A DNA stretch of 64,000 nt from an uncultured Desulfurococcales archaeon (GTDB taxonomy: Archaea > Thermoproteota > Thermoprotei_A > EX4484-217-1): positions 585-64,584 of the forward strand of contig CAZLZO010000006.1 in assembly GCA_964564025.1 (NCBI GenBank), written 5' to 3'. The notes under the pieces were generated by a model that was not told where the DNA came from, made no database searches, and worked only from the letters and a program-made list of their open reading frames with translations. Position numbers and translations under genes: made by a program. Shown here piece after piece: positions 49,943-63,751 of this stretch. Each line of letters opens with the position of its first letter. Positions within the stretch are counted from its first letter, which is position 1.

Positions 49943-50839
49943 ATGTTCAGAAACCCTGGAGAAGCATATAGAGTGCTTAGTAAGAGAGACCTACTAGTTC
50001 TTAGAATTATAGAGAGGTTCATGAAACAATATGAGTATGTTCCATTAGAACTAATAGTGTCTAAAGCTAAACTTCCCGATAAGGAAGTTTCACTATCGCT
50101 AATTAAACTAAATAAGTTAAAACTAGTTAGACGTTACAGAGGAGAGTATACAGGCTACTTACTAACATACTTAGGTTATGATTGCTTAGCAATAGATGAT
50201 CTTGTGAAGAGAAACATTGTTTATGCATTAGGACCAAAGCTTGGCGTAGGTAAGGAAGCAGATCTTTTTAAGGCGCTTTCACCGGTGAATGAGAGAATAG
50301 TTGTAAAGTTCCATAGAATAGGCAGGTCAAGTTTTAAACAAACCCGTAAATTTAGACCTTACGTTGAGAATAAGCCTCATATATCATGGCTTCTTCAATC
50401 AACAATCTCAGCCGAAAGAGAGTTTAGAGCGCTTATAGAGTGTGAGAAAGCAGGTGTTAATGTTCCTAAAGCTTTAGGTAGAAGCAGACATGTTGTAGTA
50501 ATGAAGCATATTGAAGGAGTTCTTCTATATAAATACCGTAGTCCTCAAAACCCTGAATCAACACTCTTAGAAATAATTGAAAGCATTAGGAAAGCATTCT
50601 TGGAAGTAGGTATAGTGCATGGTGATTTAAGCGAGTTTAACGTAATGATAGAGTTTAACACTGAAAAACCCATAATAATAGATTGGCCCCAATATGTTGA
50701 GAAAGATCATCCAAGCGCTCAAATGCTTCTTGAAAGAGACGTTAAATACATTACATGGTTTTTCAAGAAAAAATTTAAGGTAGAGTTAGAGTTAGAAAAA
50801 GCTCTTAGATATGTGAGGGGGGAAAGTGAGTCACTCTAG
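49943..50839 (+). CDS. rio2: RIO2 atypical protein kinase
   Basis: N-terminal wH, GVGKEAD, VKFHRIGR.SF, VHGDLSEFN, IIDWPQ. Confidence 0.95.
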   Translation: MFRNPGEAYRVLSKRDLLVLRIIERFMKQYEYVPLELIVSKAKLPDKEVSLSLIKLNKLKLVRRYRGEYTGYLLTYLGYDCLAIDDLVKRNIVYALGPKLGVGKEADLFKALSPVNERIVVKFHRIGRSSFKQTRKFRPYVENKPHISWLLQSTISAEREFRALIECEKAGVNVPKALGRSRHVVVMKHIEGVLLYKYRSPQNPESTLLEIIESIRKAFLEVGIVHGDLSEFNVMIEFNTEKPIIIDWPQYVEKDHPSAQMLLERDVKYITWFFKKKFKVELELEKALRYVRGESESL

Positions 50840-52859
50840 AGAAAAAGTAGTGTTTGGAATAGACATACTTCCTTCAAGCTCTCCTGCATCTTCAAAGGAA
50901 CCTCATTACGCCTTGGTTATCCTTAGGAATGGGGAAGTTTTTGATAAAAACCCTAATGTGGCTTTGCGCCGAATCATTAGGTTAGCTTGGGAATATAGGC
51001 CTTCAATAATAGGTGTAGATAACATATATGAGCTTGGAGAAAACGAAAGAAGCGTAGTTAAGATTATTAGTCTTCTTCCTCCTGAAACCTCTGTTGTTCA
51101 AGTTAATGTTGACGAGGATAAAGTAAGTAAGCTCTGGGAAAAGGCTAAGGAAGCAAATCTAATATCAGAATACAGTAAGTTTCCGCCTTTAAAAACAGCG
51201 TATTTAGTAGCTAAACTAGCTGACATGGGTTATGGATTGAAGATAAGGGTTTTTGAAGAGAAAACGAAAATCATAATCTCTAAAGGAAGAAGCTTAGGTT
51301 CAGGAGGCATGAGTCAAGGTAGATACCAGAGGCATATTAGAGGGCTCATACTTCAAGCCGTAAGAAAAATTAAAGAAGCTCTTGACGAACATGGATTAGA
51401 CTATGACATGGTTGTTAGAAAAAGCGAGAGCGGATATGATGGTGCTGTATTCATAGTTTACGCTCCTAGAGAGAAGCTTTATGGAATAGTTTCTTCAATG
51501 AAAGGACATGACATAAGGGTAATAATAAAGCCTGTTTATAAGGAGAAAATAGAGTTTGAAACTGTAAAGAAGCATGTAAGAAGAAAACCCCTCATAGTAG
51601 GCATAGATCCTGGAATATTCACCGGAGTAGCAATACTTGATTTGGATGGGAATGTACTAGATGTTTTTAGCGGGAAAAACATTGATAGATACGATATTAT
51701 AAGGAGAATTGAAGAGTACGGTAAACCATTAATCATAGCATCAGATGTTTCACCTCCTCCGGATACTCTAGAAAAACTTTCAACAACGTTTAATGCTAAA
51801 TTATATGTTCCACCTGAAAGTCTCTCTCAAAGCGAGAAAGAGGATCTTGTCAAAACTTATTTGCAAAAAATAGGTAGTGCTATTTCCGTAACAGATAGTC
51901 ATCAGAGAGACGCTTTAGCTGCAGCACTATATGCACTAAGGTTCTTTAAGCAGAAGTTTGAACAAATAGATAATTATCTCAAAAAACTGGACCTTGACCT
52001 AGATGTAGACAAGATACGTGCCGATGTAGTTAAGGGAGCCACAATAGCTTCAGCAATAGAGAAGGAAATATATAGAAAACTTTCTCATGAACTTAGACAG
52101 AAAACTATTGAAGAGAAAAAGTATAGACAGAAGCAACATAAAGAAACTAATATAGAATCATTATTAGGGGAAGTTGAAAAGCTTGAAAAAGAGAAGGCGT
52201 TACTTAAAGAGAAATTAAAACAAGCTAAAGATGAAATATATGAGCTTAAAAGGCAACTAGATAGTTATCATAGACAAACAAATATTCAGTTAAAAGCCAT
52301 AAGAGAAATACAGTCGCTTTCTGAAGAGGTTAGAAGACTCAGCGAGGAATTGAAGAAAGCTGAGAGGGAAAATGCTGAGTTAAGGGAGAAACTAAGAAAG
52401 TTTGAAAATGTTTTAAGAGAAGTTTCGAAAGGCAACTATAAGATAGCTAAAACGATCACTACATTAACGCTGACATCACTATCTAAAATGGAAAGGGATT
52501 ATGGAGAATTGAAAGATGATGACTTAATTTATGTTTTAAACCCAACGTTCATTCAAGAAGAAGCTGTAGAGAGAGTAGTTAAAGAAAATGTGTTGGCAAT
52601 ACTTGCCGAAAAACCAACTGAAGAATTCAAGAACACCTTAGAGTCAAAAGCCGTGCCTGTAATAGAACTTAGCGAAGTAAGAGATTTCATTACTAAACTA
52701 GGGGATATGTTAATGTTTAAAAACGAGCTCGTTGAAGAAGCAAAGGCGAGGAAGAAAGCTCTCAGAGAACTAATGCTTAAAAGAACAACTATTGATTTAG
52801 AAAAAATCGTTAAGGAATATAGAAGCGAGCGATGGGGGTTCCCTTCTAAAACACTTTAA
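50826..52859 (+). CDS. DUF460 domain protein (RNase H-like folds plus coiled coil)
   Basis: [34 protein letters not shown], long coiled coil. Confidence 0.88.
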
Positions 52860-54060
52860 CCTTACCCTCTAAAACCTCTTTTGAAATCTTGACTACATTA
52901 TCTATTTCCTCTATAGCTATAGATTCTACCTCATTTTTAATATTCTGTGGAAGTTCTTCGACATCACCTATAACTTTAATGTTCGCCATCCATGGATCAT
53001 TTATTGGTCTGCCTATTTGGCTTAAAAGTTCAACATAAACTTCTTTTATTTTGGGTATTTCCTTAACAATTTTATTAGCTATTTTCTGTGCTAAAATATT
53101 ATAAATCTTGCCTACATGGCTTACTGGGTTTTTTCCTGCAGCTGCTTCTAAAGACATAGGTCTATTGGGTGTAATAAGTCCATTAACTCTATTTCCTCTG
53201 CCTGTTGAGCCGTCATCTCCGTGTTCAGCTGATGTTCCAGTTACTGTAATGTAAACTATTCCTTTCTCAGGTTTATCGCCAGTATTTAAGTGAACAGTAA
53301 CCTCATAATCGGGAATATATCTTTCAGCAAGTTTCTTAATCTCCTCAATAACCTGTTCTTTCACAGAAATGTAATGGTCGAGATCAGGTATTAGTCTGGA
53401 AATCATTGCTGCAGCAACAGTTAACTCTACTTTATCTCCTTTTCGCAAACCCATTACCTTAATATCTTCACCGACTTCAGGAAGTTTTCTTTTAAACTCT
53501 TTCGAATTAAGGTATCTTTCAACATTTAATACAAGGTTTTCTAGGGGAGTTAGAGGAGCAAAAGCTACACCAACAGAGGTATCATTTGCTAAGGGGACCT
53601 TCTTACCTAGTTCAAAAATTCTAACAAGATCTGCAGAGCCTTTACCTATTTTGTAGTCAACAATTACATGTTTTTCAGGATCTAAAAATCTAAAGTTACT
53701 CTTAATCCATTCTTTAACAGATTCAACAACTATTCTACCTACAGGAACGGGCTCTATCTTCCCTTCACGAATAACCTCTGTTGTTGCTCTACCTGAAACA
53801 ATAATGTATATGGGATGAAGAACTTCACCACCACCAAATACGGGATTAGCTTGACCTCCAACTAAAAGTGTTTTATCAAGATTATGGTGAAGTATTATAC
53901 CAAAGTTCTCTAAATAGTATTTTGAAAGACTCCTACTAGCTTCTTCGGAAACAGCGTCAGCAATGTAATCGGGATGGCCTAAACCCTTTCTTTCAACAAA
54001 CTCAACATAAAATTCAGCCGTTGATTTTCTTTTCTCGTACTCAACAATAATGTTTTTCAT
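52846..54060 (-). CDS. mat: archaeal S-adenosylmethionine synthetase
   Basis: [51 protein letters not shown]. Confidence 0.97.
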
Positions 54061-54199
54061 AGCATACCCCGCTTAACATTAAAAATAATGCTGTTTAAAA
54101 ATTTATCTAAGAAACACTGTGCAGAATATTATTCTCAGTAATAAATATTTTTATTACTCATTTTAACTATTTCGGAAATACTAACTAGCTTATTTTAGT

Positions 54200-54442
54200 T
54201 TATGGCTGATAATCTGTGTTAATAAATAAAATGTTACTGCCTCGAACAAGTACTCTACCATATTTAGCTATAGGTTCTGATGAGCCCTCTTTAACCTCTA
54301 CACAATCACTTAATAAGAGGTTCATAGTGTTATCACATTGTTCAAGTCTTCCAATATATTCTGAACCATCTTTTAACCTTACTAGAACGGTGTTGTTTAT
54401 TGCGCTTCTTAAGTATTTTAGCGGTGAATCCATAGGCTTCAT
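54200..54442 (-). CDS. Sm-like archaeal protein (SmAP/LSm)
   Basis: V.V.LKDG..Y.G.L...[12 protein letters not shown]. Confidence 0.93.
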
Positions 54443-54564
54443 AGTTATCTCCTAAAAAACATTTACTGTGTTGTTTCAACTAATGTGTGTAACTATATCT
54501 ACTTCAGAATCCTTTTGATAAGAGGTATTTAAAAGTTTAGGTACAAGAGAATGAGGTTAAAATG

Positions 54565-55080
54565 TCAGATAACGTATATTATGTCATATTTTTCCTCAAA
54601 AACTTCTTTTCCTTTAACGTTAATGTTTATATTTACTTTTTTAGGAACAGATATAACCGCTATAGAGGACTTACTTCTTAAAGTTCTCTTCACTTCTAAT
54701 ATCGCAAGCTCTACATCAGGTACATTTTGAAACGTTGTAAACGATAAAATGAAGTCGAAGCACTTATTTCTAAACGGTAAAAACTCCGCATCACCCTGTA
54801 ATAAATCAGACAAAATAACAGTGTTTCTCTTGATTTTTCTTTTTGCTATTTTAAGCATGTTTATGCTTAAATCTAAACCTACATAGTATGTTAAGCAGTT
54901 TTCATCCAACATTTTTAAGGCAAATTCGTATAGTAAGCTTGTTCCGCAACCTAAATCTAAAACAGTAGTTTTCCCCTTAAAGGCCATTTTAACAATGCTC
55001 AGTACAGTCATGTATTTTCCGTACTGTTCCTCTCTATGAAGCTTATCATATGATGAAAACGTAGTATCGTACTTTCTCAT
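54565..55080 (-). CDS. class I SAM-dependent methyltransferase
   Basis: VLDLGCGT, GLDLS..ML, GDAEFLPF....FD; start moved to the ATG at 55080 to avoid a 62-bp overlap with nucS. Confidence 0.88.
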   Translation of the reverse strand: MRKYDTTFSSYDKLHREEQYGKYMTVLSIVKMAFKGKTTVLDLGCGTSLLYEFALKMLDENCLTYYVGLDLSINMLKIAKRKIKRNTVILSDLLQGDAEFLPFRNKCFDFILSFTTFQNVPDVELAILEVKRTLRSKSSIAVISVPKKVNININVKGKEVFEEKYDIIYVI

Positions 55081-55090
55081 CACATCTAGT

Positions 55091-55885
55091 TTATGTTTTA
55101 CCTTTTCCGAGAAACTCAAGTATTCCTCTACGTTCTGCTTTCTTCTTAGCATATTCCAGAATCACCTTCAAATTTATTTGTTTGAATTCTAATTTCTCTT
55201 TTAAAAGGAGCTCATAGGCTTTAGATGTTATTGAAGGTGCAGTAATTATTCCTCTAATTCTCTTAGAACCCATATGCTTTCTTAATGCCTCAATGTACTT
55301 CTTAAGCTGTCTTACTGCATCAACTCTAGCTGTTGACCTCTTAATTTCAACTACAACAACGTTTCCACGCTTATCTCTTAAGTATAAATCAATAAATCCC
55401 GGTTCAACTTTTTTCTCAATATCTATCGTAACGAAGTCTTCACCTAACAGTGAAGGGTTGGATGCTAAAACATCTCTTATTTCCCTTTCTGAAACATGCA
55501 TATAGAATGCTCCATAATCGTGGAGAATAGAAGTTACTATTAAAGATATTTCGGAAGCTCTAACAATAACTGCCTCTCTAGGCTTAGCTCTAATAGCTCT
55601 AATTATAACCTTCTCTTCTTCTTCATCGAAGGAAACATCAATATACGATGTTTCTGGTTGCCAATTCACTGGAGAATGTCCGGTGGGTCTATGAATTAAG
55701 AATGCTCCATCGGACTTAATTATTATTTGTCTTTCTCCTTCCTCAAGCTTAGAAGACGATCTACCGAAATATTCTACATCACATTTAGCTATAATGTAAA
55801 TATTCTTTTTGCTCTTAATACCTTTCCTTAAAATTTCCGCAGCCTCTCTTAGATCTAGGTCCTTGTAAACATCTACTTTAGCCAT
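55091..55885 (-). CDS. nucS: mismatch endonuclease NucS/EndoMS
   Basis: C.V.Y.GR..S.L..G.R, KSDGAFLIH, PVNWQP, G.IDL, VVEIKR, QL..Y. Confidence 0.95.
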   Translation of the reverse strand: MAKVDVYKDLDLREAAEILRKGIKSKKNIYIIAKCDVEYFGRSSSKLEEGERQIIIKSDGAFLIHRPTGHSPVNWQPETSYIDVSFDEEEEKVIIRAIRAKPREAVIVRASEISLIVTSILHDYGAFYMHVSEREIRDVLASNPSLLGEDFVTIDIEKKVEPGFIDLYLRDKRGNVVVVEIKRSTARVDAVRQLKKYIEALRKHMGSKRIRGIITAPSITSKAYELLLKEKLEFKQINLKVILEYAKKKAERRGILEFLGKGKT

Positions 55886-55982
55886 AACTTACCTTCTCCA
55901 AGTGTTTACTCATTAGAAACATCTATTTAAGCGAAGTTGTACAATCTCCCTTACTAGGAATAGGTGGGAAAGGGAAATTATT

Positions 55983-56624
55983 TTGAAAAAAGCTATTTTC
56001 ATAATAGAGCATTTAGAGGAAAAATTAGGACAGTGGATACTTTTAGAATATGAAAATGTAGCTAAAATAGTCGGTAAAGAGAATCTCATAGTAACAAACA
56101 TTAAAGACAACAAGGAAATACTAACTAAAATAGCTAATACTATTGTTTCGGAAAGCGCTGTAGAGTTTTTGAACAAATTTAAATCGGGGAACATCATAGT
56201 TTTAGACCCTCAAGCAGAAAGAGTCTTGGAACCTGAAGACTTCGTCGGAAACAGGTTAAACACTGTAATAGTAGGGGGGATATTAGGGGATCACCCACCT
56301 AAAGGTAGAACACGTGAACTACTTACCAAAAAGTTTCTGAAGAAAAATTATGAAGTTAAAGTAAGGCATTTAGGTAAAGAACAATTAACCATAGATGGAG
56401 CAGTTTACGTAGCTTACCAAATACTTAAGGGTAAAAGAATTTCAGAAATACCTTTCACTATTGGACTAACTATTATACGTAAAGTAGGTTATGTGGAACA
56501 TGAAATCATACTGCCTTACAAATACCCTTTAGTTAACGGTAAACCTTTAGTTAACCCTAAGCTCATAAATTACCTAACTAAAGGAATAGTTGTTGATGAA
56601 ATAAAGCAGCTGGGTAAGCCATGA
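55983..56624 (+). CDS. SPOUT methyltransferase, Sfm1-like
   Basis: IEHLE....W..LEY, LDPQAE..L.PED, VGGILGDHPP..RT, RHLG..QLTIDGAV. Confidence 0.88.
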   Translation: MKKAIFIIEHLEEKLGQWILLEYENVAKIVGKENLIVTNIKDNKEILTKIANTIVSESAVEFLNKFKSGNIIVLDPQAERVLEPEDFVGNRLNTVIVGGILGDHPPKGRTRELLTKKFLKKNYEVKVRHLGKEQLTIDGAVYVAYQILKGKRISEIPFTIGLTIIRKVGYVEHEIILPYKYPLVNGKPLVNPKLINYLTKGIVVDEIKQLGKP

Positions 56625-58606
56625 AGAACTCTATGAGTACACTGGATATTTATGTGTGGATAGAGAAATGGGGTAAAAGTATTGAGAAATGCTTTGTAGA
56701 TAACATTTATAGTTTAGAAAATAACATCCTAGTTTTCAAACTTAATTGTAAAGGTAAGGCAGAAAACCCCATGATTCTCATTGAAGCATCTAAAAGAATT
56801 CACTTAACAAAACATGTCATAGTAGGGAAGTCTAAACATACCCCTTTAATTCAAGCTATGAGGAAAAGACTTAGAAACGCAATATTGGAAAGCATTGAGC
56901 AACTAGGTTGGGAGAGAATTGTTAAATTAGTGTTTAAAAAACATAGTGAAACATACTTTGTTTATTTAGAAATTATACCCCGTGGGGTAATAGTCCTAAC
57001 AGATTCTGAAAACACAATAATCTATGCTTCAAAATTCGTTAAAATGAAGGACCGTTCAATAGTGCCTAAGGGAAAATACTCCTTACCTCCAGCTAAAGGC
57101 ATGAACCCATTAGCTGAACCTATCGAAAAATTATACAACGTCTTTTCAGGAGAAAAGAATGTTTCAAAAGGCTTTATCAAGTGCTTTGGAGTACCTAGTG
57201 AGATTATTAACGAAATACTCTTTCGATTAAATATGGGTAAGGACAAAGATAAATGGTCTTTTAAAGATTTTCTAAAGGCATATAGTGTTTTTAAAGAAAT
57301 AATTGATGAATCTATGGAGGGTAAAGGGTACATTGTTAAGACAGACAAAGGAAACTATGTAACTGTAACACCATTTAAACCTAAGCATATAGAGAAGCAT
57401 GTTGTTGAGGAATATTCTGATTTTAATGAAGCTCTTGACGAATACTTTACTGAAGTACTCAAGCAAGCTAGAATGATGGAGATGATAAAAGCTAAGCATG
57501 ATGAAGTAACGAGGCTTGAAAAGTCCATAGAGGAAGCACTTAAAGTAAAGGAGAAGTATGCTGAAGAAGCTGAGATTTGTAGAAGAATGGGAGATTTAAT
57601 AATGCATTACATGAATGATGTAGCATTAATTATTAATTGCTTAAGAAGTAAAAATATTAGAAAACTTGAACCCAATGATGCTGTTAAAGCGTGTAATAAG
57701 GTTTCAAGGAAGCTAAGGATTCTTGAATATCTTAAAGATAAAGGGAAAGTCGTTGTTGAAGCGGATAATGTGAAAATCCCTATTGACATAAGGTTGTCAC
57801 CTTATGAGAATGCCGCAAAATACTATGAGAAAGCTAAGGAGAGGAAGCGAAAAGCAAGTAAGGTTGATGAAAAAGTATTTGAACTTAAGATGAAACTTAA
57901 AAGGCTTCTTGAAGAAGAAGCGTTTACTGTAGAAGAAGAGAAAGCTAGAATTAAAAGGAGAGAGTGGTTTGAAAAATATCACTGGACTATATCTAAGGAT
58001 GGATACTTAATTTTAGGAGGGAGAGATGCTAGTCAAAATGAAAGTTTAGTAAGGAAGCTCTTAGAACCTAATGACATATTTATGCATGCAGATATTCATG
58101 GAGCCTCTGCAGTCATAATTAAGTCTAAGGGCAAAGCTTCGGAGGAAGCATTAAAGGAAGCTGCAGTAATTGCCGCTTCATATTCTAAAGCGTGGAAGGA
58201 GGGATTGGCATCAATAGACGTATATTGGGTTTGGGGAGATCAGGTTTCTAAGAAGCCTCCAGCCGGAGAATACTTAACTAAAGGGGCATTCATGATTTAT
58301 GGTAAGAAGAATTATATTAGAAATGTTCCACTAGAATTAGCTTTAGGATTGCAGGTAATAAATGATTCTTTAAGAGTAATTGTGGGTTCTGAACAGAATG
58401 TTAAGGAAAAAGCCATAGCTTACGTAATATTGTCTCCAGGTAGTGAAGAGCCCTATAAGCTTGCTAAGAGAATTAAGAAAATTTTCTACGAAAAGCTTCC
58501 AGAAAGCTTCAGGGCAAAAGTTAAAGTGGTTTCTGAAGAGGAAATAGCAAGGGAGATTCCAGGTTTATCTACCATTAGAAAAGTTGTTATTCTATTGTCT
58601 TCTTAG
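56621..58606 (+). CDS. rqcH: ribosome quality-control factor Rqc2/NEMF (NFACT domains)
   Basis: MS.LD, LRKRL.N, QLGWERIV, WFEKYHW, GGRDASQNE, MHADIHGAS, YL.KGAFMIYGKKNY. Confidence 0.95.
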   Translation: MKNSMSTLDIYVWIEKWGKSIEKCFVDNIYSLENNILVFKLNCKGKAENPMILIEASKRIHLTKHVIVGKSKHTPLIQAMRKRLRNAILESIEQLGWERIVKLVFKKHSETYFVYLEIIPRGVIVLTDSENTIIYASKFVKMKDRSIVPKGKYSLPPAKGMNPLAEPIEKLYNVFSGEKNVSKGFIKCFGVPSEIINEILFRLNMGKDKDKWSFKDFLKAYSVFKEIIDESMEGKGYIVKTDKGNYVTVTPFKPKHIEKHVVEEYSDFNEALDEYFTEVLKQARMMEMIKAKHDEVTRLEKSIEEALKVKEKYAEEAEICRRMGDLIMHYMNDVALIINCLRSKNIRKLEPNDAVKACNKVSRKLRILEYLKDKGKVVVEADNVKIPIDIRLSPYENAAKYYEKAKERKRKASKVDEKVFELKMKLKRLLEEEAFTVEEEKARIKRREWFEKYHWTISKDGYLILGGRDASQNESLVRKLLEPNDIFMHADIHGASAVIIKSKGKASEEALKEAAVIAASYSKAWKEGLASIDVYWVWGDQVSKKPPAGEYLTKGAFMIYGKKNYIRNVPLELALGLQVINDSLRVIVGSEQNVKEKAIAYVILSPGSEEPYKLAKRIKKIFYEKLPESFRAKVKVVSEEEIAREIPGLSTIRKVVILLSS

Positions 58607-58629
58607 CCTTATCTTGTGGTGGAAATTTC

Positions 58630-59058
58630 TTGTCAGAAACAGGAGAAGAAATTCTTGTAGAAGAAATTATGAGTACCCCACCAATAGCAATATCTCCTAA
58701 TGCCTCAGCATCGGAAGTAGCTAAAATTATGACTGAGAAGAAAATAGGTTGTTTAATTGTTGTAGAAAACAAGAGAGTTGTAGGAATAGTTACGAGAAGG
58801 GATCTTGTTGAAAAGGTTTTAGCTAAGGAAAAGAACCCTGTGAAAACGAGAGTTAGAGAAATTATGTCTACTCCTGTAATATATGTTAAACCTGGAACAC
58901 CAATTTTAGAGGTTGCTAAAATTATGTCGCGACATGATATAAGGCATGTCCCCGTTATAAATAATAGAGGCCTTGTAGGTGTAATTACTGATAAGGACAT
59001 TTTATCAGTAGCACCGGATCTCATAGAGGTACTTACTATTAGAAGGTATACTTCGTGA
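58630..59058 (+). CDS. CBS-domain protein (one CBS pair)
   Basis: V.EIMS.PP, GIVT.RD, IRHVPV, GVITDKD. Confidence 0.93.
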   Translation: MSETGEEILVEEIMSTPPIAISPNASASEVAKIMTEKKIGCLIVVENKRVVGIVTRRDLVEKVLAKEKNPVKTRVREIMSTPVIYVKPGTPILEVAKIMSRHDIRHVPVINNRGLVGVITDKDILSVAPDLIEVLTIRRYTS

Positions 59059-59118
59059 AAGTTTCAAGAAAAATATATTTCGTGCAAAAAGAAACTATAA
59101 TATTTGAGGTAGCTTAGT

Positions 59119-59904
59119 GTGGAACTTCTAAAATATGTTAACGTAAACTATCCTCAATTATCCCCTAATGATTTAGCAACAAAAGCACGTGCCTTAATGA
59201 GAGATTTTGGGTTAAGGATAATACCGATAGTTGAAAATAATAAGTTAGTAGGTATTGTTTATAGAATAAATGTACTTAGCATGACTTCTTCTAAATCTAA
59301 TCTCTTAATAAGAAACATAGTTGATGAATCTAAAATTATTTTGAATCCAAACTTTAGCGTTAGAGTAGCTGTGGAAAACATGCTTAAAGTTGATGAATGG
59401 TATGCTCCAGTAGTTGATGAAAAAGGTAACTTCATTGGAATATTTGAAATAGATAGTGTCATAAGAGAATTTTGTTCAAGAAACATTTTAATAAATAATA
59501 AACCTATTAAGGAGATTATGACAGAAAATGTAATATATGTTAATGAAGATGAGGAGCTTTCTACAGTTTTCTATAAAATGCTTAAGCATCAATATGCGGG
59601 AATGCCTGTAGTTAATAAGAGGAAAAGGGTGGTTGGAATCATAACCCAACATGATCTTTTAAAATCAGGGTTTACGCGTTTACAATTGGAATCTGAAAGA
59701 TCAGGTGGGTATAGATCTATTAAAGCCAGAGACATTATGAGCACAAATATTGTTAAAGTGTCTCCTACGGCTACACTAGGTGAGGTAGCTAAACTTATTG
59801 TAGATAGGGATATAGGTAGGGTAATTGTTGTTAATAAGGAAAACAAGTTACTAGGCATAGTTGATAGAGAGGATATTGTTAAAGCGTATCTTCCCTATAT
59901 TTAA
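59119..59904 (+). CDS. CBS-domain protein (four CBS)
   Basis: Repeated P.V...L.GI motifs, GIITQHDL, GIVDRED. Confidence 0.92.
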   Translation: MELLKYVNVNYPQLSPNDLATKARALMRDFGLRIIPIVENNKLVGIVYRINVLSMTSSKSNLLIRNIVDESKIILNPNFSVRVAVENMLKVDEWYAPVVDEKGNFIGIFEIDSVIREFCSRNILINNKPIKEIMTENVIYVNEDEELSTVFYKMLKHQYAGMPVVNKRKRVVGIITQHDLLKSGFTRLQLESERSGGYRSIKARDIMSTNIVKVSPTATLGEVAKLIVDRDIGRVIVVNKENKLLGIVDREDIVKAYLPYI

Positions 59905-59933
59905 AACTTGGTTAATTAGGAGGTTTCTTTAAA

Positions 59934-60887
59934 TTGTCAAGACCTACGAGATTTGTGAGCCCAAAGAAAAGGAGGTTTCCTGAAGGCCAAAGGTTTTTAA
60001 GAAGTAATGGTAAACCTAGTTTTTCAACTAGGGTTTATGAAAAGCCTGGAGAGCTTTATTTAATAGCTAAGAGGCCAGTAGTTACAATAACGCATGTTGA
60101 ACCTATAGGTAAAGCAGTAAGAACAATGACTAAAAAAGGTTTTCGTAGGCTTCCTGTAACTAAAGCAACAGGTGAGCTTCAAGGCATAATTACAGCAACA
60201 GATATTGTAAACTATTTTGGCGGTGGAGAATACTTTAACATAATAGTTAATAGACATAGTAAAAACATATATAAGGCGTTTGATGAGCCCGTTTCATCAA
60301 TAATGAATAGGAACCCTATCTATGCAACAACAGAAGACACCTTAACCTACGTCATAGAACTCATGGTAAAATACAATGTGGGAGGAATACCCGTTGTTAC
60401 ACCTGATGAAGGAAAAATTTACGGAATAATAACAGAACGTGATGTAATAAATTATCTTGGGGGTAAAGTGTTAGGTATGAAAGTAGCGGAAGTTATGACT
60501 AAGAGTGTAATAACTTTACCTTATGATGCTTCAATCAAGGAAGCAGCTAAAACAATGATAAAAATGGGGTTTAGGAGAATACCATTAGTTGATAGAAACG
60601 GATATGTTAGAGGCTTAATAACTGCAAGAAGTATTGTAAGATTTTTCGGAACAAACAAAGTTTTCGACTATATAGTCACTGGAAACATTGATGAAGTACT
60701 AAGTGTGCCTGCTTATGAAGCAGCTATTCATGAAATAATAACGTTGTCTCCTGATGCTGATGTCGGCGAAGCAGCATCAAAAATGGCTGAAACAGGAATG
60801 GGCTCTGTTCTTGTAGCTAAAGGATCTAGACTTGTAGGAATACTTACTGAAAGAGACATTATGTTACTTCTCGTAATTAAGAGGTGA
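59934..60887 (+). CDS. CBS-domain protein (four CBS, basic N-terminal extension)
   Basis: FRRLPV, GIITATDIVNYFGGG, GIITERD, FRRIP, GILTERD. Confidence 0.93.
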   Translation: MSRPTRFVSPKKRRFPEGQRFLRSNGKPSFSTRVYEKPGELYLIAKRPVVTITHVEPIGKAVRTMTKKGFRRLPVTKATGELQGIITATDIVNYFGGGEYFNIIVNRHSKNIYKAFDEPVSSIMNRNPIYATTEDTLTYVIELMVKYNVGGIPVVTPDEGKIYGIITERDVINYLGGKVLGMKVAEVMTKSVITLPYDASIKEAAKTMIKMGFRRIPLVDRNGYVRGLITARSIVRFFGTNKVFDYIVTGNIDEVLSVPAYEAAIHEIITLSPDADVGEAASKMAETGMGSVLVAKGSRLVGILTERDIMLLLVIKR

Positions 60888-60891
60888 AATA

Positions 60892-61734
60892 TTGCCTCCA
60901 AGAATACAGAATTATATGTCCTCACCAGTAACTGTTGCTTCCCCACTCGACAGCTTAGCACATATAAGGAATTTAATGTTACGCCATGATATAAGTACAG
61001 TCGTGATAGTTGATGAAAATGAGAAACCTATGGGCTTAGTTTCGAGAAAGGATATTTTAAAAGCAACAATGACTAAGGATTGGATATCTAGACCTATTGA
61101 TAGAATTTATGCTTCAGAAGTTATGACAAAACCTTACAGTGTTAAGCCAAGTTTAAGCATAAAGAGGGCAGCTAATTTAATGTTGAAAAAGGATTTATGG
61201 TCTCTAGTGGTTACGGTTGAAGAAAAGCTTGTTGGAATACTCACTAGAACAGACCTTGCAAGAGCGTATGCAGAAAAATACTATGGTAAAGCTAGGGTAG
61301 AAGAATTCATGGAAAAAACTGTCCCTACGGTTTCACCAACACATACAATATATTACGTAGCAGATCTTCTATCAAGAACCAATCTAAGAAGAGTTGTAGT
61401 TGTAGATAATGAGAAACCTATAGGAATTATTACCGAATTCGATCTAGCATTCGTCGAAACAGCACTAACGCGACATAGAGGTGAGTCTTTTAGGAAAAGA
61501 CTAGGTAGGTCCCCGAGAGGGAAGTATTGTGTAATACGTTACTACCTTGTCCCATTAGCTATAGACGTTATGACCTCTGACCTTATTACAATAGAGCCAG
61601 AAGCGGACTTAGCAGAAGCTGCACATGCAATGATAGTAAACGGTATAAGTAGCTTACCTGTAGTTAGCAATGGTAAGCTTTTAGGGATAGTAACTAAGGC
61701 AAATATTTTAAAGGCTATAACTGAGGTTTCATAG
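60892..61734 (+). CDS. CBS-domain protein (four CBS, basic insertion)
   Basis: YMSSPV, GILTRTD, GIITEFD, GIVTKAN. Confidence 0.92.
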   Translation: MPPRIQNYMSSPVTVASPLDSLAHIRNLMLRHDISTVVIVDENEKPMGLVSRKDILKATMTKDWISRPIDRIYASEVMTKPYSVKPSLSIKRAANLMLKKDLWSLVVTVEEKLVGILTRTDLARAYAEKYYGKARVEEFMEKTVPTVSPTHTIYYVADLLSRTNLRRVVVVDNEKPIGIITEFDLAFVETALTRHRGESFRKRLGRSPRGKYCVIRYYLVPLAIDVMTSDLITIEPEADLAEAAHAMIVNGISSLPVVSNGKLLGIVTKANILKAITEVS

Positions 61735-61736
61735 TT

Positions 61737-62546
61737 ATGAGCGTTAATTTGAATTTGAAAGTTAGCGAAGTAATGCTAAAAGAATTCCCTGTTCTTGATA
61801 AAGATGACACATTGCACCATGCTTTAAAGCTTATGGGAAAATACGGCATGGACAGGGTTGTTGCAATAGAAAAAGGAAAGATTGTCGGTATAGCTACAAA
61901 GAAGGATATTATGGAGAGACTTGGAACTTTAAGGACAAGAAACATAACCCCTTCAAGACTTTATGTTTCAAGTGTTATGACCTCTAATCCCATAACACTT
62001 AAGCCTGAAGCTAGGGTTAAATCGGCCGTAAATCTTATGGTGGAGAATGATGTAAGTAGCATACCTATAGTTGATGATGAAAATAGACCTTTAGGATTAA
62101 TAACTAAGGTTGAAATAGCTAAGCTTTGTGTTAAAGAAAAAGTAAAAGTAGCTGAAATAATGAGTTGGAACCCCATTTATGTTAAGCCTACAGATAGGGT
62201 TTTACATGCAAGACAACTATTAATACGAAATAGTATAACAACATTACCTGTTGTTGAAGAAGATAAGGTTGTAGGATTAGTTACTATAGATGACGTAGCT
62301 GACGTATTAGCTGCATTTCACGATATAGTTCCTGAAAAATACAGGAAAGAAAGAATAATGAACCTATTAGTAGCTGACATTATGAGGATAAGATTTCCTA
62401 AACTCTATATTGACACAACACTTGGTGATGCTGCTAAAGAAATTGTAATGAGAAGGTTAAAGGGAGCACCAGTTTTAGGTAGAAATAACATGTTAATAGG
62501 AATTTTAACTTTAACTGATATTACAAGATATGTTGCTGGAAAATAA
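61737..62546 (+). CDS. CBS-domain protein (four CBS)
   Basis: GIATKKDI..RLG, GLITKVE, GLVTIDD, GILTLTD. Confidence 0.92.
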   Translation: MSVNLNLKVSEVMLKEFPVLDKDDTLHHALKLMGKYGMDRVVAIEKGKIVGIATKKDIMERLGTLRTRNITPSRLYVSSVMTSNPITLKPEARVKSAVNLMVENDVSSIPIVDDENRPLGLITKVEIAKLCVKEKVKVAEIMSWNPIYVKPTDRVLHARQLLIRNSITTLPVVEEDKVVGLVTIDDVADVLAAFHDIVPEKYRKERIMNLLVADIMRIRFPKLYIDTTLGDAAKEIVMRRLKGAPVLGRNNMLIGILTLTDITRYVAGK

Positions 62547-62589
62547 TTTAAAACACTTTAGAACAACAATTTTCTTAAGGAATTTTAAA

Positions 62590-63075
62590 ATGTTTAAGCT
62601 AAAATTTGTAGCCGACGCAATGTTAGGTAGTTTAGCTAGGTGGCTAAGAATTTTAGGCTATGATACAGTGTATTCGAAAAACATTAGTGATAAGGATATT
62701 TTAGAGCATGCGTCTAAGGATAAAAGGATAATTTTGACACGGGATTACAGTCTTTACAGGAGGGCTAAAAAATACGGATTAAACGTTGTGTATTTTGAAA
62801 CGAATGAAATAGAAAAAATGCTAACTGTACTCGCTAAAAGGTATGGCATAAACTTAGCAATAGACCCTGATAGAACTAGATGCCCAATATGTAATGGTGA
62901 TTTAGTAAGAGCTTCTTCAGAAAAGGTTAAAGGTAGAGTACCCGAAGTCGTAATAAAGGAACATAAGGATTTTTGGATATGCACTAAATGTGGCAAAATA
63001 TATTGGAAAGGCACTCACTGGATAACAATGGAGAAAATACTGGCTGAAGTTAGAAAAGAGGTTTCCAAGGTGTAA
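62590..63075 (+). CDS. Mut7-C RNase (PIN fold plus Zn ribbon) domain protein
   Basis: FVADAMLG.LARWLR.LGYD, LTRD, RCP.CNG, C..CGKIYW.G.H; start moved to the ATG at 62590. Confidence 0.93.
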   Translation: MFKLKFVADAMLGSLARWLRILGYDTVYSKNISDKDILEHASKDKRIILTRDYSLYRRAKKYGLNVVYFETNEIEKMLTVLAKRYGINLAIDPDRTRCPICNGDLVRASSEKVKGRVPEVVIKEHKDFWICTKCGKIYWKGTHWITMEKILAEVRKEVSKV

Positions 63076-63079
63076 TAAG

Positions 63080-63751
63080 ATGGTTACATTAAAAGACTTT
63101 ACACTTGACGACGGCGTATTCTTAGTTAAACTTTCAAGAAAAGCTGTTGAAACATTTTTAAAAGCTGGAGTTAAAATTTCACCTCCTAAAAATATTCCTG
63201 AAAAGTTTAAAGAAAAATTCGGTGTTTTTGTAACCATAGAAAGACTTAGCCATATAGGGCCCAAGGTTTATAAGGAATTAAGAGGATGCATAGGTTTCCC
63301 ATATCCAATAAAGTCCCTCATAGAAGCAACCATTGACTCTGCAATATCTGCTGCTGTTGAAGATCCTAGGTTCCCCCCTATGAAGCTTAACGAGCTAAGT
63401 AATGTTATATTTGAGGTCTCCATTCTTTCTCCTCCAGAGGAAGTAGTGGTAAGAAACAGGAAGGATTTACCTAAAGAAATAGTTATTGGCCGCGATGGCC
63501 TCATAGTAGAGTATGGCTGGTATAGAGGCTTACTTTTACCCCAAGTACCAGTAGAGTATAAATGGGACACTGAAACCTTTCTTGCAGAAACATGTATGAA
63601 AGCTGGTCTACCTCCAGATTCATGGCTCATTGACGATGTTAAAATTTACAGGTTCGAGGCAAGGATTTTTACTGAAATAGAACCTAATGGTAAAGTAGTT
63701 ATGAGAGACTTATTTAAGGAACTTAAGGTAATGAAGGAGAGTGAGAATTGA
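63080..63751 (+). CDS. AMMECR1/TIGR00296 family protein
   Basis: GVFVT, LRGCIG, DPRFPP, EVSILS, IG.DGLI, GLLLPQV. Confidence 0.95.
   Translation: MVTLKDFTLDDGVFLVKLSRKAVETFLKAGVKISPPKNIPEKFKEKFGVFVTIERLSHIGPKVYKELRGCIGFPYPIKSLIEATIDSAISAAVEDPRFPPMKLNELSNVIFEVSILSPPEEVVVRNRKDLPKEIVIGRDGLIVEYGWYRGLLLPQVPVEYKWDTETFLAETCMKAGLPPDSWLIDDVKIYRFEARIFTEIEPNGKVVMRDLFKELKVMKESEN

Follow-up and report, generated by a model that had tools for sequence, protein, structure and literature searches.

An Sfm1-like SPOUT methyltransferase gene overlaps rqcH at the head of a predicted ribosome rescue and hibernation gene cluster in a Desulfurococcales archaeon

In a 64,000-nucleotide stretch of DNA from an uncultured Desulfurococcales archaeon (GenBank assembly GCA_964564025.1, contig CAZLZO010000006.1, positions 585 to 64,584 of the forward strand; hereafter the window), the gene of an Sfm1-like SPOUT methyltransferase overlaps by four bases the gene rqcH, whose product belongs to the NFACT/Rqc2/NEMF family. 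We regard it as rather probable that the encoded protein is an orthologue of yeast Sfm1 that acts on the ribosomal protein uS3 and is co-expressed with a cluster of ribosome rescue and hibernation genes. The 213-residue protein would then be a monomeric SPOUT-fold, S-adenosylmethionine (SAM)-dependent protein arginine methyltransferase (PRMT), and its most likely substrate would be R141 of uS3—R146 in yeast and human—beside the A site of the small subunit and the incoming codon. Its gene is probably co-transcribed with rqcH and heads a plus-strand cluster of nine genes, in which rqcH is probably translated by termination–reinitiation at the ATGA overlap.

Even for yeast, the biological function of Sfm1 and of the R146 modification in uS3 is poorly understood, and archaeal ribosome quality control (RQC) is almost unstudied. 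The conserved association of the methyltransferase gene with those of RqcH, Pelota, aRF1 and hibernation factors leads to a concrete and testable hypothesis for the purpose of this modification.

The Sfm1-like enzyme and its catalytic residues

The open reading frame (ORF) begins with TTG, the sole in-frame start codon preceding the conserved N-terminal residues. It matches the SFM1-like family PF04252 with an E value of 8.9e-49 and 166.2 bits (cut-off 27) over profile positions 2–197 of 201. Among solved structures, the protein is closest to yeast Sfm1 (5c74 and 5h5d, E 4e-21); the sequence match to it spans the full length, C-terminal domain included, and its FGGILGDHPP is aligned with residues 98–106 of the window protein. 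For an AlphaFold2 model that drew on 20 diverse homologues, the mean predicted local distance difference test score is 86.6 and the predicted template modeling (TM) score 0.85. Its top Foldseek matches are Sfm1 5h5e and 5h5f, with TM scores of 0.76–0.78 over 208–214 columns, again with the C-terminal β domain; Trm10 follows at about 0.5. According to this model, the window protein has a SPOUT core and a small C-terminal β-rich domain.

The residues needed for catalysis by yeast Sfm1 are known from mutagenesis: E9A, W15A, E19A, F180A, Q137A, P85A, and M138A each abolish activity, with Glu9, Trp15, and Glu19 forming a PRMT-like arginine pocket and G105 and I107 contacting S-adenosylhomocysteine (Lv et al., PMC4860837). 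In the HMMER alignment, the seven mutated positions correspond to E12, W18, E22, Y179, Q134, P76, and L135 of the window protein. The pocket is kept in the archaeal homologues—E12 (as E or D) in 119 of 120, W18 and E22 in all 120, and Y179 (as Y or F) likewise in all 120. For the SAM site, the yeast residues L83/P85, G105/I107, L133, Q137, and M138 are matched by L74/P76, G98/I100, L130, Q134, and L135, of which Q134 is kept in 120/120 and P76 in 116/120 homologues; G98, G99, I100, and G102 are invariant in an alignment of homologues. Since the pocket residues are kept across these 120 homologues and lie outside the region that can be aligned with Trm10, the catalytic apparatus for arginine methylation is conserved in archaeal Sfm1-like proteins.

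Yeast Sfm1 (YOR021C; PDB 5C74, 5C77, and 5H5D-F) and the window protein hence belong to the same Pfam family and have in common the SPOUT core with the C-terminal β domain, the GGILGDHPP loop, and the essential Glu, Trp, Glu, aromatic, Gln, and Pro residues; the target arginine is present in archaeal uS3. However, the two proteins are only about 30% identical, and the archaeal gene sits in a prokaryotic rescue/hibernation gene cluster, with no context of nucleolar import. Trm10, the SPOUT methyltransferase for m1G9/m1A9 of tRNA (COG2419, a paralogue of COG2428), is likewise monomeric, but has neither the Glu-Trp-Glu arginine pocket nor the C-terminal domain of the Sfm1 type; the NCBIfam model for Trm10 gives the window protein 25 bits at a cut-off of 550. 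Bioinformatic work had recognized archaeal members of COG2428 by 2007 (PMC1829167), and the enzyme itself is an ordinary member of its family. The novelty lies in the extended neighborhood and in the way it recurs with factors of rescue and termination.

The target arginine in archaeal uS3

R146 of uS3 is the methylation site of yeast Sfm1 (PMC4860837); it has been placed beside the A site and the incoming codon, and modelled as contacting the codon next to the A site (PMC7866298). A preliminary description of the window, made from the sequence alone, had placed this arginine at the mRNA entry channel, which is essentially right. By alignment, R146 of human and yeast uS3 corresponds to R141 in the uS3 of the window's genome, where it lies within GKLTSERA, and the arginine is also found in the PDB uS3 chains of Saccharolobus, Sulfolobus, Thermococcus, and Pyrococcus. 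R146 has been described as conserved in eukaryotes, but not in prokaryotes (PMC7866298); in contrast, the present analysis finds the yeast methylation target conserved in archaeal uS3.

Overlap with rqcH

The gene downstream is assigned to RqcH by the archaeal equivalog model NF041120 (599 bits, cut-off 400). Both NFACT_N (PF05833) and NFACT-R_1 (PF05670) are found in its product, which among solved structures is closest to human NEMF (E 3e-53). An N-terminal Asp and an Asp-Arg motif of yeast Rqc2 are needed for tRNA binding and tailing; in the window RqcH, D9 is aligned with D9 of NEMF and Rqc2, and E98-R99 with the Asp-Arg motif, in a conservative exchange of Asp for Glu. The rqcH ATG lies over the TGA of the Sfm1-like gene, and both the four-base overlap and the Sfm1-type GGILGDHPP motif of the preliminary description are borne out. 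Upstream, the 97 bp toward the divergent nucS gene presumably hold the promoter of the plus-strand cluster; an A/T-rich TATTTAA is found there at about 55924–55930.

Linkage to rqcH across archaea

Linkage was followed in a sample of 201 Thermoproteota genomes, in 121 genomes of the Asgard phylum (Baldrarchaeia included), and in 80 named loci collected by the pattern GGILGD[HY]PP. A full-length Sfm1-like gene is present in about 30 of the 201 Thermoproteota genomes, and for 12 of these 30 rqcH lies no more than 1.3 kb away—in four GTDB family codes, one of which is in another class. Among the Asgard genomes, 10 of 121 carry the gene, with rqcH less than 2 kb away in at least six; in the other four, the two genes are on different contigs, and three of these four Sfm1-like genes are near a contig end. 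Within 4.5 kb, rqcH is found in 28 of the 80 loci, which come from Desulfurococcales, Pyrodictiaceae, Methanomethylicia/Culexarchaeia, Baldrarchaeota, Hodarchaeota, and one Asgard LC30; it was found nearby in none of the roughly 35 Bathyarchaeia loci nor in the Nezhaarchaeales, DPANN, and Sulfolobales loci fetched. The survey of synteny proposed in the preliminary description is positive in this respect, as the two genes are neighbors in a number of deep lineages, namely Desulfurococcales, Methanomethylicia/Culexarchaeia, Baldrarchaeia, and Asgard archaea.

The form of the linkage is variable. In the commonest arrangement, a plus-strand Sfm1-like gene is followed by a minus-strand gene for an EMC6-like protein of about 95 residues and then by rqcH on the plus strand, which is not an operon; over all lineages, the Sfm1-like gene may be co-directional with, divergent from, or convergent to rqcH. 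Tight adjacency is seen only in some Desulfurococcales, with gaps of −4 (L002), −4 (L003), −1 (L004), +9 (L009), and +17 bp (L063), and in Thermogladius. The translational coupling suggested at the outset would be in keeping with the ATGA overlap in the window and its nearest relatives, but would be confined to some Desulfurococcales. According to a tree of 79 Sfm1-like proteins, the two genes came to adjoin each other directly on at least two to three occasions. Linkage is scattered across most of this phylogeny, with the unlinked loci mainly in one Bathyarchaeia clade and one DPANN clade.

The simplest reading of this distribution is an old block of Sfm1-like, EMC6-like, RqcH, CBS, Mut7-C, and AMMECR1 genes, common to Thermoproteota and Asgard archaea and later lost in some lineages. 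The overlap in the window would then be a derived, lineage-specific tightening of this block, brought about by loss of the intervening gene.

RqcH itself is near-universal—it is present in 196 of the 201 Thermoproteota genomes—and the Sfm1-like gene is patchy, such that about 85% of the sampled genomes have RqcH without an Sfm1-like gene. Hence, RqcH does not need the Sfm1-like gene, and the link between the two is not obligatory.

The EMC6-like neighbor

The small protein encoded between the two genes is a three-helix membrane protein that matches EMC6 and EMC6_arch. Lewis and Hegde (PMC8675477) assign to this family the role of archaeal YidC partner. In many Thermoproteota, Baldrarchaeota, and Hodarchaeota, the EMC6-like gene is the next one upstream of rqcH and points away from it; the same divergent pair occurs in 10 of 20 additional Thermoproteota genomes that were picked only by the position of RqcH and most of which are without an Sfm1-like gene. 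EMC6-like and rqcH are the more constant pair, compared with Sfm1-like and rqcH. In the window, the EMC6-like gene is not beside rqcH, and in the window's genome the queries used, a family member from Desulfurococcales and PF19094, gave no convincing match to this short and divergent membrane protein, with E values of 0.03–0.08 only.

Pelota and aRF1 as alternative neighbors

Where rqcH is absent from the neighborhood, other factors of ribosome rescue and termination may take its place. Nine of the 80 loci, all from one Bathyarchaeia clade, have the order Sfm1-like, SfsA (not in all), pelota; these pelota genes score about 250 bits on TIGR00111, at a cut-off of 178. In L031, pelota directly adjoins the Sfm1-like gene and is co-directional with it, as it is in G045 and G197. 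In G007, a genome of another family, the Sfm1-like gene and a pelota-like gene run toward each other and overlap at their ends. The gene of aRF1 (456 bits vs. 235) is convergent with the Sfm1-like gene at a gap of 9 bp in L080, and in G094 it is directly upstream on the same strand.

Taken together, 16 of the 30 Sfm1-like genes of Thermoproteota have rqcH (12), pelota (3), or aRF1 (1) at a distance of no more than about 1.3 kb. By chance, one would expect this for roughly 1% of genomes, given three particular genes and a genome size of about 1.5 Mb. Because the pattern was found post hoc, in relatives that are not independent, and the other neighbors of the Sfm1-like gene are generic—LeuRS, MetRS, GatDE, a TtuA-like protein, an RsmB-like methyltransferase, G6PD, and PPDK—we treat it as a lead and not as a result.

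The larger Bathyarchaeia clade (L006, L008, L014, L017, and about 17 others) has a neighborhood of its own: the Sfm1-like gene is followed by three paralogues of about 160–170 residues without Pfam match and then by a zinc-ribbon protein and GatE/GatD. A Bathyarchaeia neighbor of about 640 residues had been considered as a divergent NFACT protein, and was rejected as such; the gene is GatE.

The nine-gene cluster

The plus-strand run from 55983 to 63751 comprises nine genes with gaps of −17 to +60 bp, in the order Sfm1-like, RqcH, dual-CBS, four 4xCBS, Mut7-C RNase, and AMMECR1 (Table 1). Two of the 4xCBS proteins find their best solved matches (E 5e-55 and 2e-41) in distinct CBS chains of 9znf, 9zng, and 9zni, ribosome entries that also contain a uS3 chain. 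In Methanosarcina acetivorans, the sriABCD genes encode four 4xCBS proteins with a dual-CBS gene just upstream, and SriD occupies the A site and the mRNA channel of the small subunit (PMC13004131). The window has the same succession of four consecutive 4xCBS genes after a dual-CBS gene, and the four proteins are putative Sri-like ribosome hibernation factors; as a difference, Sfm1-like and RqcH immediately precede the array. Neither RqcH nor uS3 methylation is mentioned in the Sri paper.

The known archaeal NFACT neighborhood consists of RqcH, Mut7-C, and AMMECR1, with an RNA-directed function as the prediction (Burroughs and Aravind 2014, PMC4075521). All three are found in the window on one strand and in that order, but here the cluster begins with the Sfm1-like gene, and RqcH is separated from Mut7-C by five CBS genes. 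The window joins this neighborhood and the sri operon in one cluster. The main text of PMC4075521 mentions neither a SPOUT/Sfm1-like nor an EMC6-like gene, and a study of archaeal membrane proteins (PMC5898192) mentions neither NFACT nor EMC6. The published neighborhood is hence extended by two conserved members, Sfm1-like and EMC6-like. We found no literature report of either gene in an archaeal NFACT neighborhood, of the EMC6-like/rqcH pairing, or of an association of Sfm1 with pelota or aRF1; the literature found on archaeal RqcH includes no experimental work and consists of the comparative NFACT analysis of 2014. A minus-strand ORF of 145 residues (58587–59024), which overlaps the dual-CBS gene and has no family match, was treated as an antisense artefact.

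Table 1. Features of the window and of related loci. Positions without a locus prefix are those of the window.
Feature	Position	Strand	Size and remarks	Assignment
Archaeal SAM synthetase	52846-54060	-		Pfam
Lsm	54200-54442	-		Pfam
Class I methyltransferase	54565-55152	-		Pfam
NucS	55091-55885	-		Pfam
Divergent intergenic region	55886-55982		97 bp, between nucS (-) and Sfm1-like (+)	
Sfm1-like SPOUT methyltransferase	55983-56624	+	213 aa, TTG start	PF04252
GGILGDHPP	56274-56300	+	SAM-binding knot loop, residues 98-106, equivalent of yeast G105-P113	
ATGA overlap	56621-56624	+	4 bases, rqcH ATG over Sfm1-like TGA	Sequence
RqcH_arch (NFACT/Rqc2/NEMF family)	56621-58606	+	661 aa	NF041120
Small dual-CBS protein	58630-59058	+	142 aa	PF00571, 2 stretches
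Four 4xCBS proteins	59119-62546	+	261, 317, 280, 269 aa	PF00571, four in each
Mut7-C RNase	62530-63075	+	181 aa	PF01927, E 4e-51
AMMECR1	63080-63751	+	223 aa	PF01871, E 3e-54
uS3 of the window's genome	L082:1204-1839		Target arginine R141	
EMC6-like gene	L027:6608-6877	-	Beside rqcH	
EMC6-like gene	L038:6627-6911	-	Beside rqcH	
EMC6-like gene	L044:6629-6922	-	Beside rqcH	
EMC6-like gene	L047:609-887	-	Beside rqcH	
EMC6-like gene	L052:6599-6910	-	Beside rqcH	
EMC6-like gene	L066:6621-6914	-	Beside rqcH	
EMC6-like gene	L081:6616-6918	-	Beside rqcH	
EMC6-like gene, further loci	L086, L089-L093, L099, L100, L104, L105		Beside rqcH	
Pelota	L031:6767-7846	+	Beside Sfm1-like	
Pelota	L045:7426-8508	+	Beside Sfm1-like	
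Pelota	L108:1062-2141	-	Beside Sfm1-like	
Pelota	L107:1746-2891	+	Beside Sfm1-like	
aRF1	L080:6637-7722	-	Beside Sfm1-like, Desulfurococcales-type genome	
aRF1	L106:1739-2812	+	Beside Sfm1-like, Desulfurococcales-type genome	

Substrate and meaning of the linkage

Several observations weigh against a uS3-directed Sfm1 orthologue. The target arginine is kept in Sulfolobus acidocaldarius, an archaeon without the enzyme; its presence does not discriminate genomes with from genomes without the enzyme, and, being equally conserved in archaea that lack it, the arginine is not usable as a correlate. The window protein has an isoelectric point (pI) of 9.4 and a net charge of +8, with a median pI of 8.9 over 121 archaeal homologues, and of the C-terminal acidic patch of yeast Sfm1 (E167/E174/E177/D203) E174 is kept, with Ile in place of E167 and E177. 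In yeast, the acidic surface partly sets the choice of substrate and is said to make the enzyme unfit for RNA; the archaeal enzymes, on the contrary, are basic. As they are basic and, to judge from the window protein, keep only part of the acidic patch, they may see uS3 in another context than the yeast enzyme does, for example on ribosomal RNA (rRNA). The basic pI would also suit an RNA methyltransferase that acts on tRNA or rRNA in the manner of Trm10 and cooperates with Mut7-C or AMMECR1, or modifies the tRNA of RqcH. Trm10 is, after all, the next relative in structure and sequence, homologues are labelled 'ribosome biogenesis SPOUT family RNA methylase' by JGI, and the neighborhood has been predicted to be RNA-directed. 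We consider such an activity improbable, however: the Glu-Trp-Glu-aromatic pocket is specific to Sfm1, essential for protein methylation, and invariant in archaea, its N-terminal residues have no counterpart in the Trm10 alignment, and yeast Sfm1 is inactive on total RNA (PMC4860837). Even less probable is another protein as arginine substrate, be it RqcH, a Sri-like CBS protein, or a further ribosomal protein. The incomplete acidic substrate-binding patch would fit this, as would the one more substrate reported for yeast Sfm1, whose identity is not established (PMC7866298), but RqcH, Pelota, and aRF1 share no common fold as alternative substrates, and within the family no substrate other than uS3 has been validated.

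For the linkage with rqcH, the conserved neighborhood speaks for the connection between methylation and RQC that had been proposed from the window alone; the prevalence of RqcH without the enzyme and the different subunits involved—RqcH works on the split large subunit, uS3 is part of the small one—speak against it, and a functional link is best taken as a hypothesis from gene context. A history of synteny alone, in which the Sfm1-like gene stood at the edge of a core of EMC6-like, RqcH, CBS, Mut7-C, and AMMECR1 genes and came to overlap rqcH by a deletion without selective meaning, seems to us somewhat unlikely. The EMC6-like/rqcH pairs in genomes mostly devoid of the enzyme, the variable orientation, and the independence of RqcH from it would all agree with such a history, but proximity has been kept in two phyla despite rearrangements, tight adjacency has arisen repeatedly and independently, and pelota or aRF1 is found as neighbor where rqcH is not. 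These latter neighbors, L080 and the nine Bathyarchaeia loci included, would in turn favor a direct functional coupling, in which methylation of R141 tunes the engagement of Pelota, aRF1, SriD-like factors, and, after splitting, RqcH, and in which co-expression is selected. The lineages differ in their arrangement—co-directional or convergent, with or without SfsA—which points to repeated retention or re-formation of the linkage. It is also mechanistically suggestive that mRNA positions +5 to +9 are taken up by the sensing β-loop of Dom34/Pelota (PMC5187420), that R146 is modelled at the codon next to the A site, and that SriD lies in the same channel. Direct coupling nevertheless appears unlikely, given a pattern seen post hoc among otherwise generic translation and metabolic genes, three near-universal partners of a patchy enzyme, the different subunits and variable orientations already named, and EMC6-like as the more constant companion of rqcH; in addition, deletion of sfm1 in yeast has no strong phenotype (PMC7866298). 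Rather than a direct enzyme–substrate relation with RqcH, the clustering would reflect co-regulation of ribosome-directed functions, in line with the uS3-directed Sfm1 orthologue that we prefer. A farther-reaching and quite speculative idea is that uS3 arginine methylation is an archaeal mark governing the engagement of stalled or idle ribosomes by Pelota, aRF1, SriD-like factors, and, further downstream, the RqcH pathway, in a system passed to eukaryotes via Asgard archaea. If true, the placement beside rqcH, pelota, and aRF1 would be a genomic trace of that system.

Flanking genes

On the other side of the intergenic region, the minus-strand block 52846–55885 of SAM synthetase, Lsm, class I methyltransferase, and NucS keeps the same order in L002, L003, L009, L061, L063, L081, and other Desulfurococcales. 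The location of a SAM synthetase near two methyltransferases may be more than chance. Within this block, the ORFs of the class I methyltransferase and nucS overlap by 62 bp (55091–55152).

In most Desulfurococcales (L081:5117-6013, +; L009:5156-6019, +; and 12 other Desulfurococcales loci), the gene just before the Sfm1-like gene, in the same orientation, encodes a protein of about 295 residues with only a weak metallo-β-lactamase-like match; this gene is absent from the clade of the window. A few kilobases upstream of the cluster, at 49943–52859, the window contains a further ribosome-related pair, in which a gene for the Rio2 kinase, which takes part in small-subunit maturation, overlaps a gene for a DUF460 protein of 677 residues.

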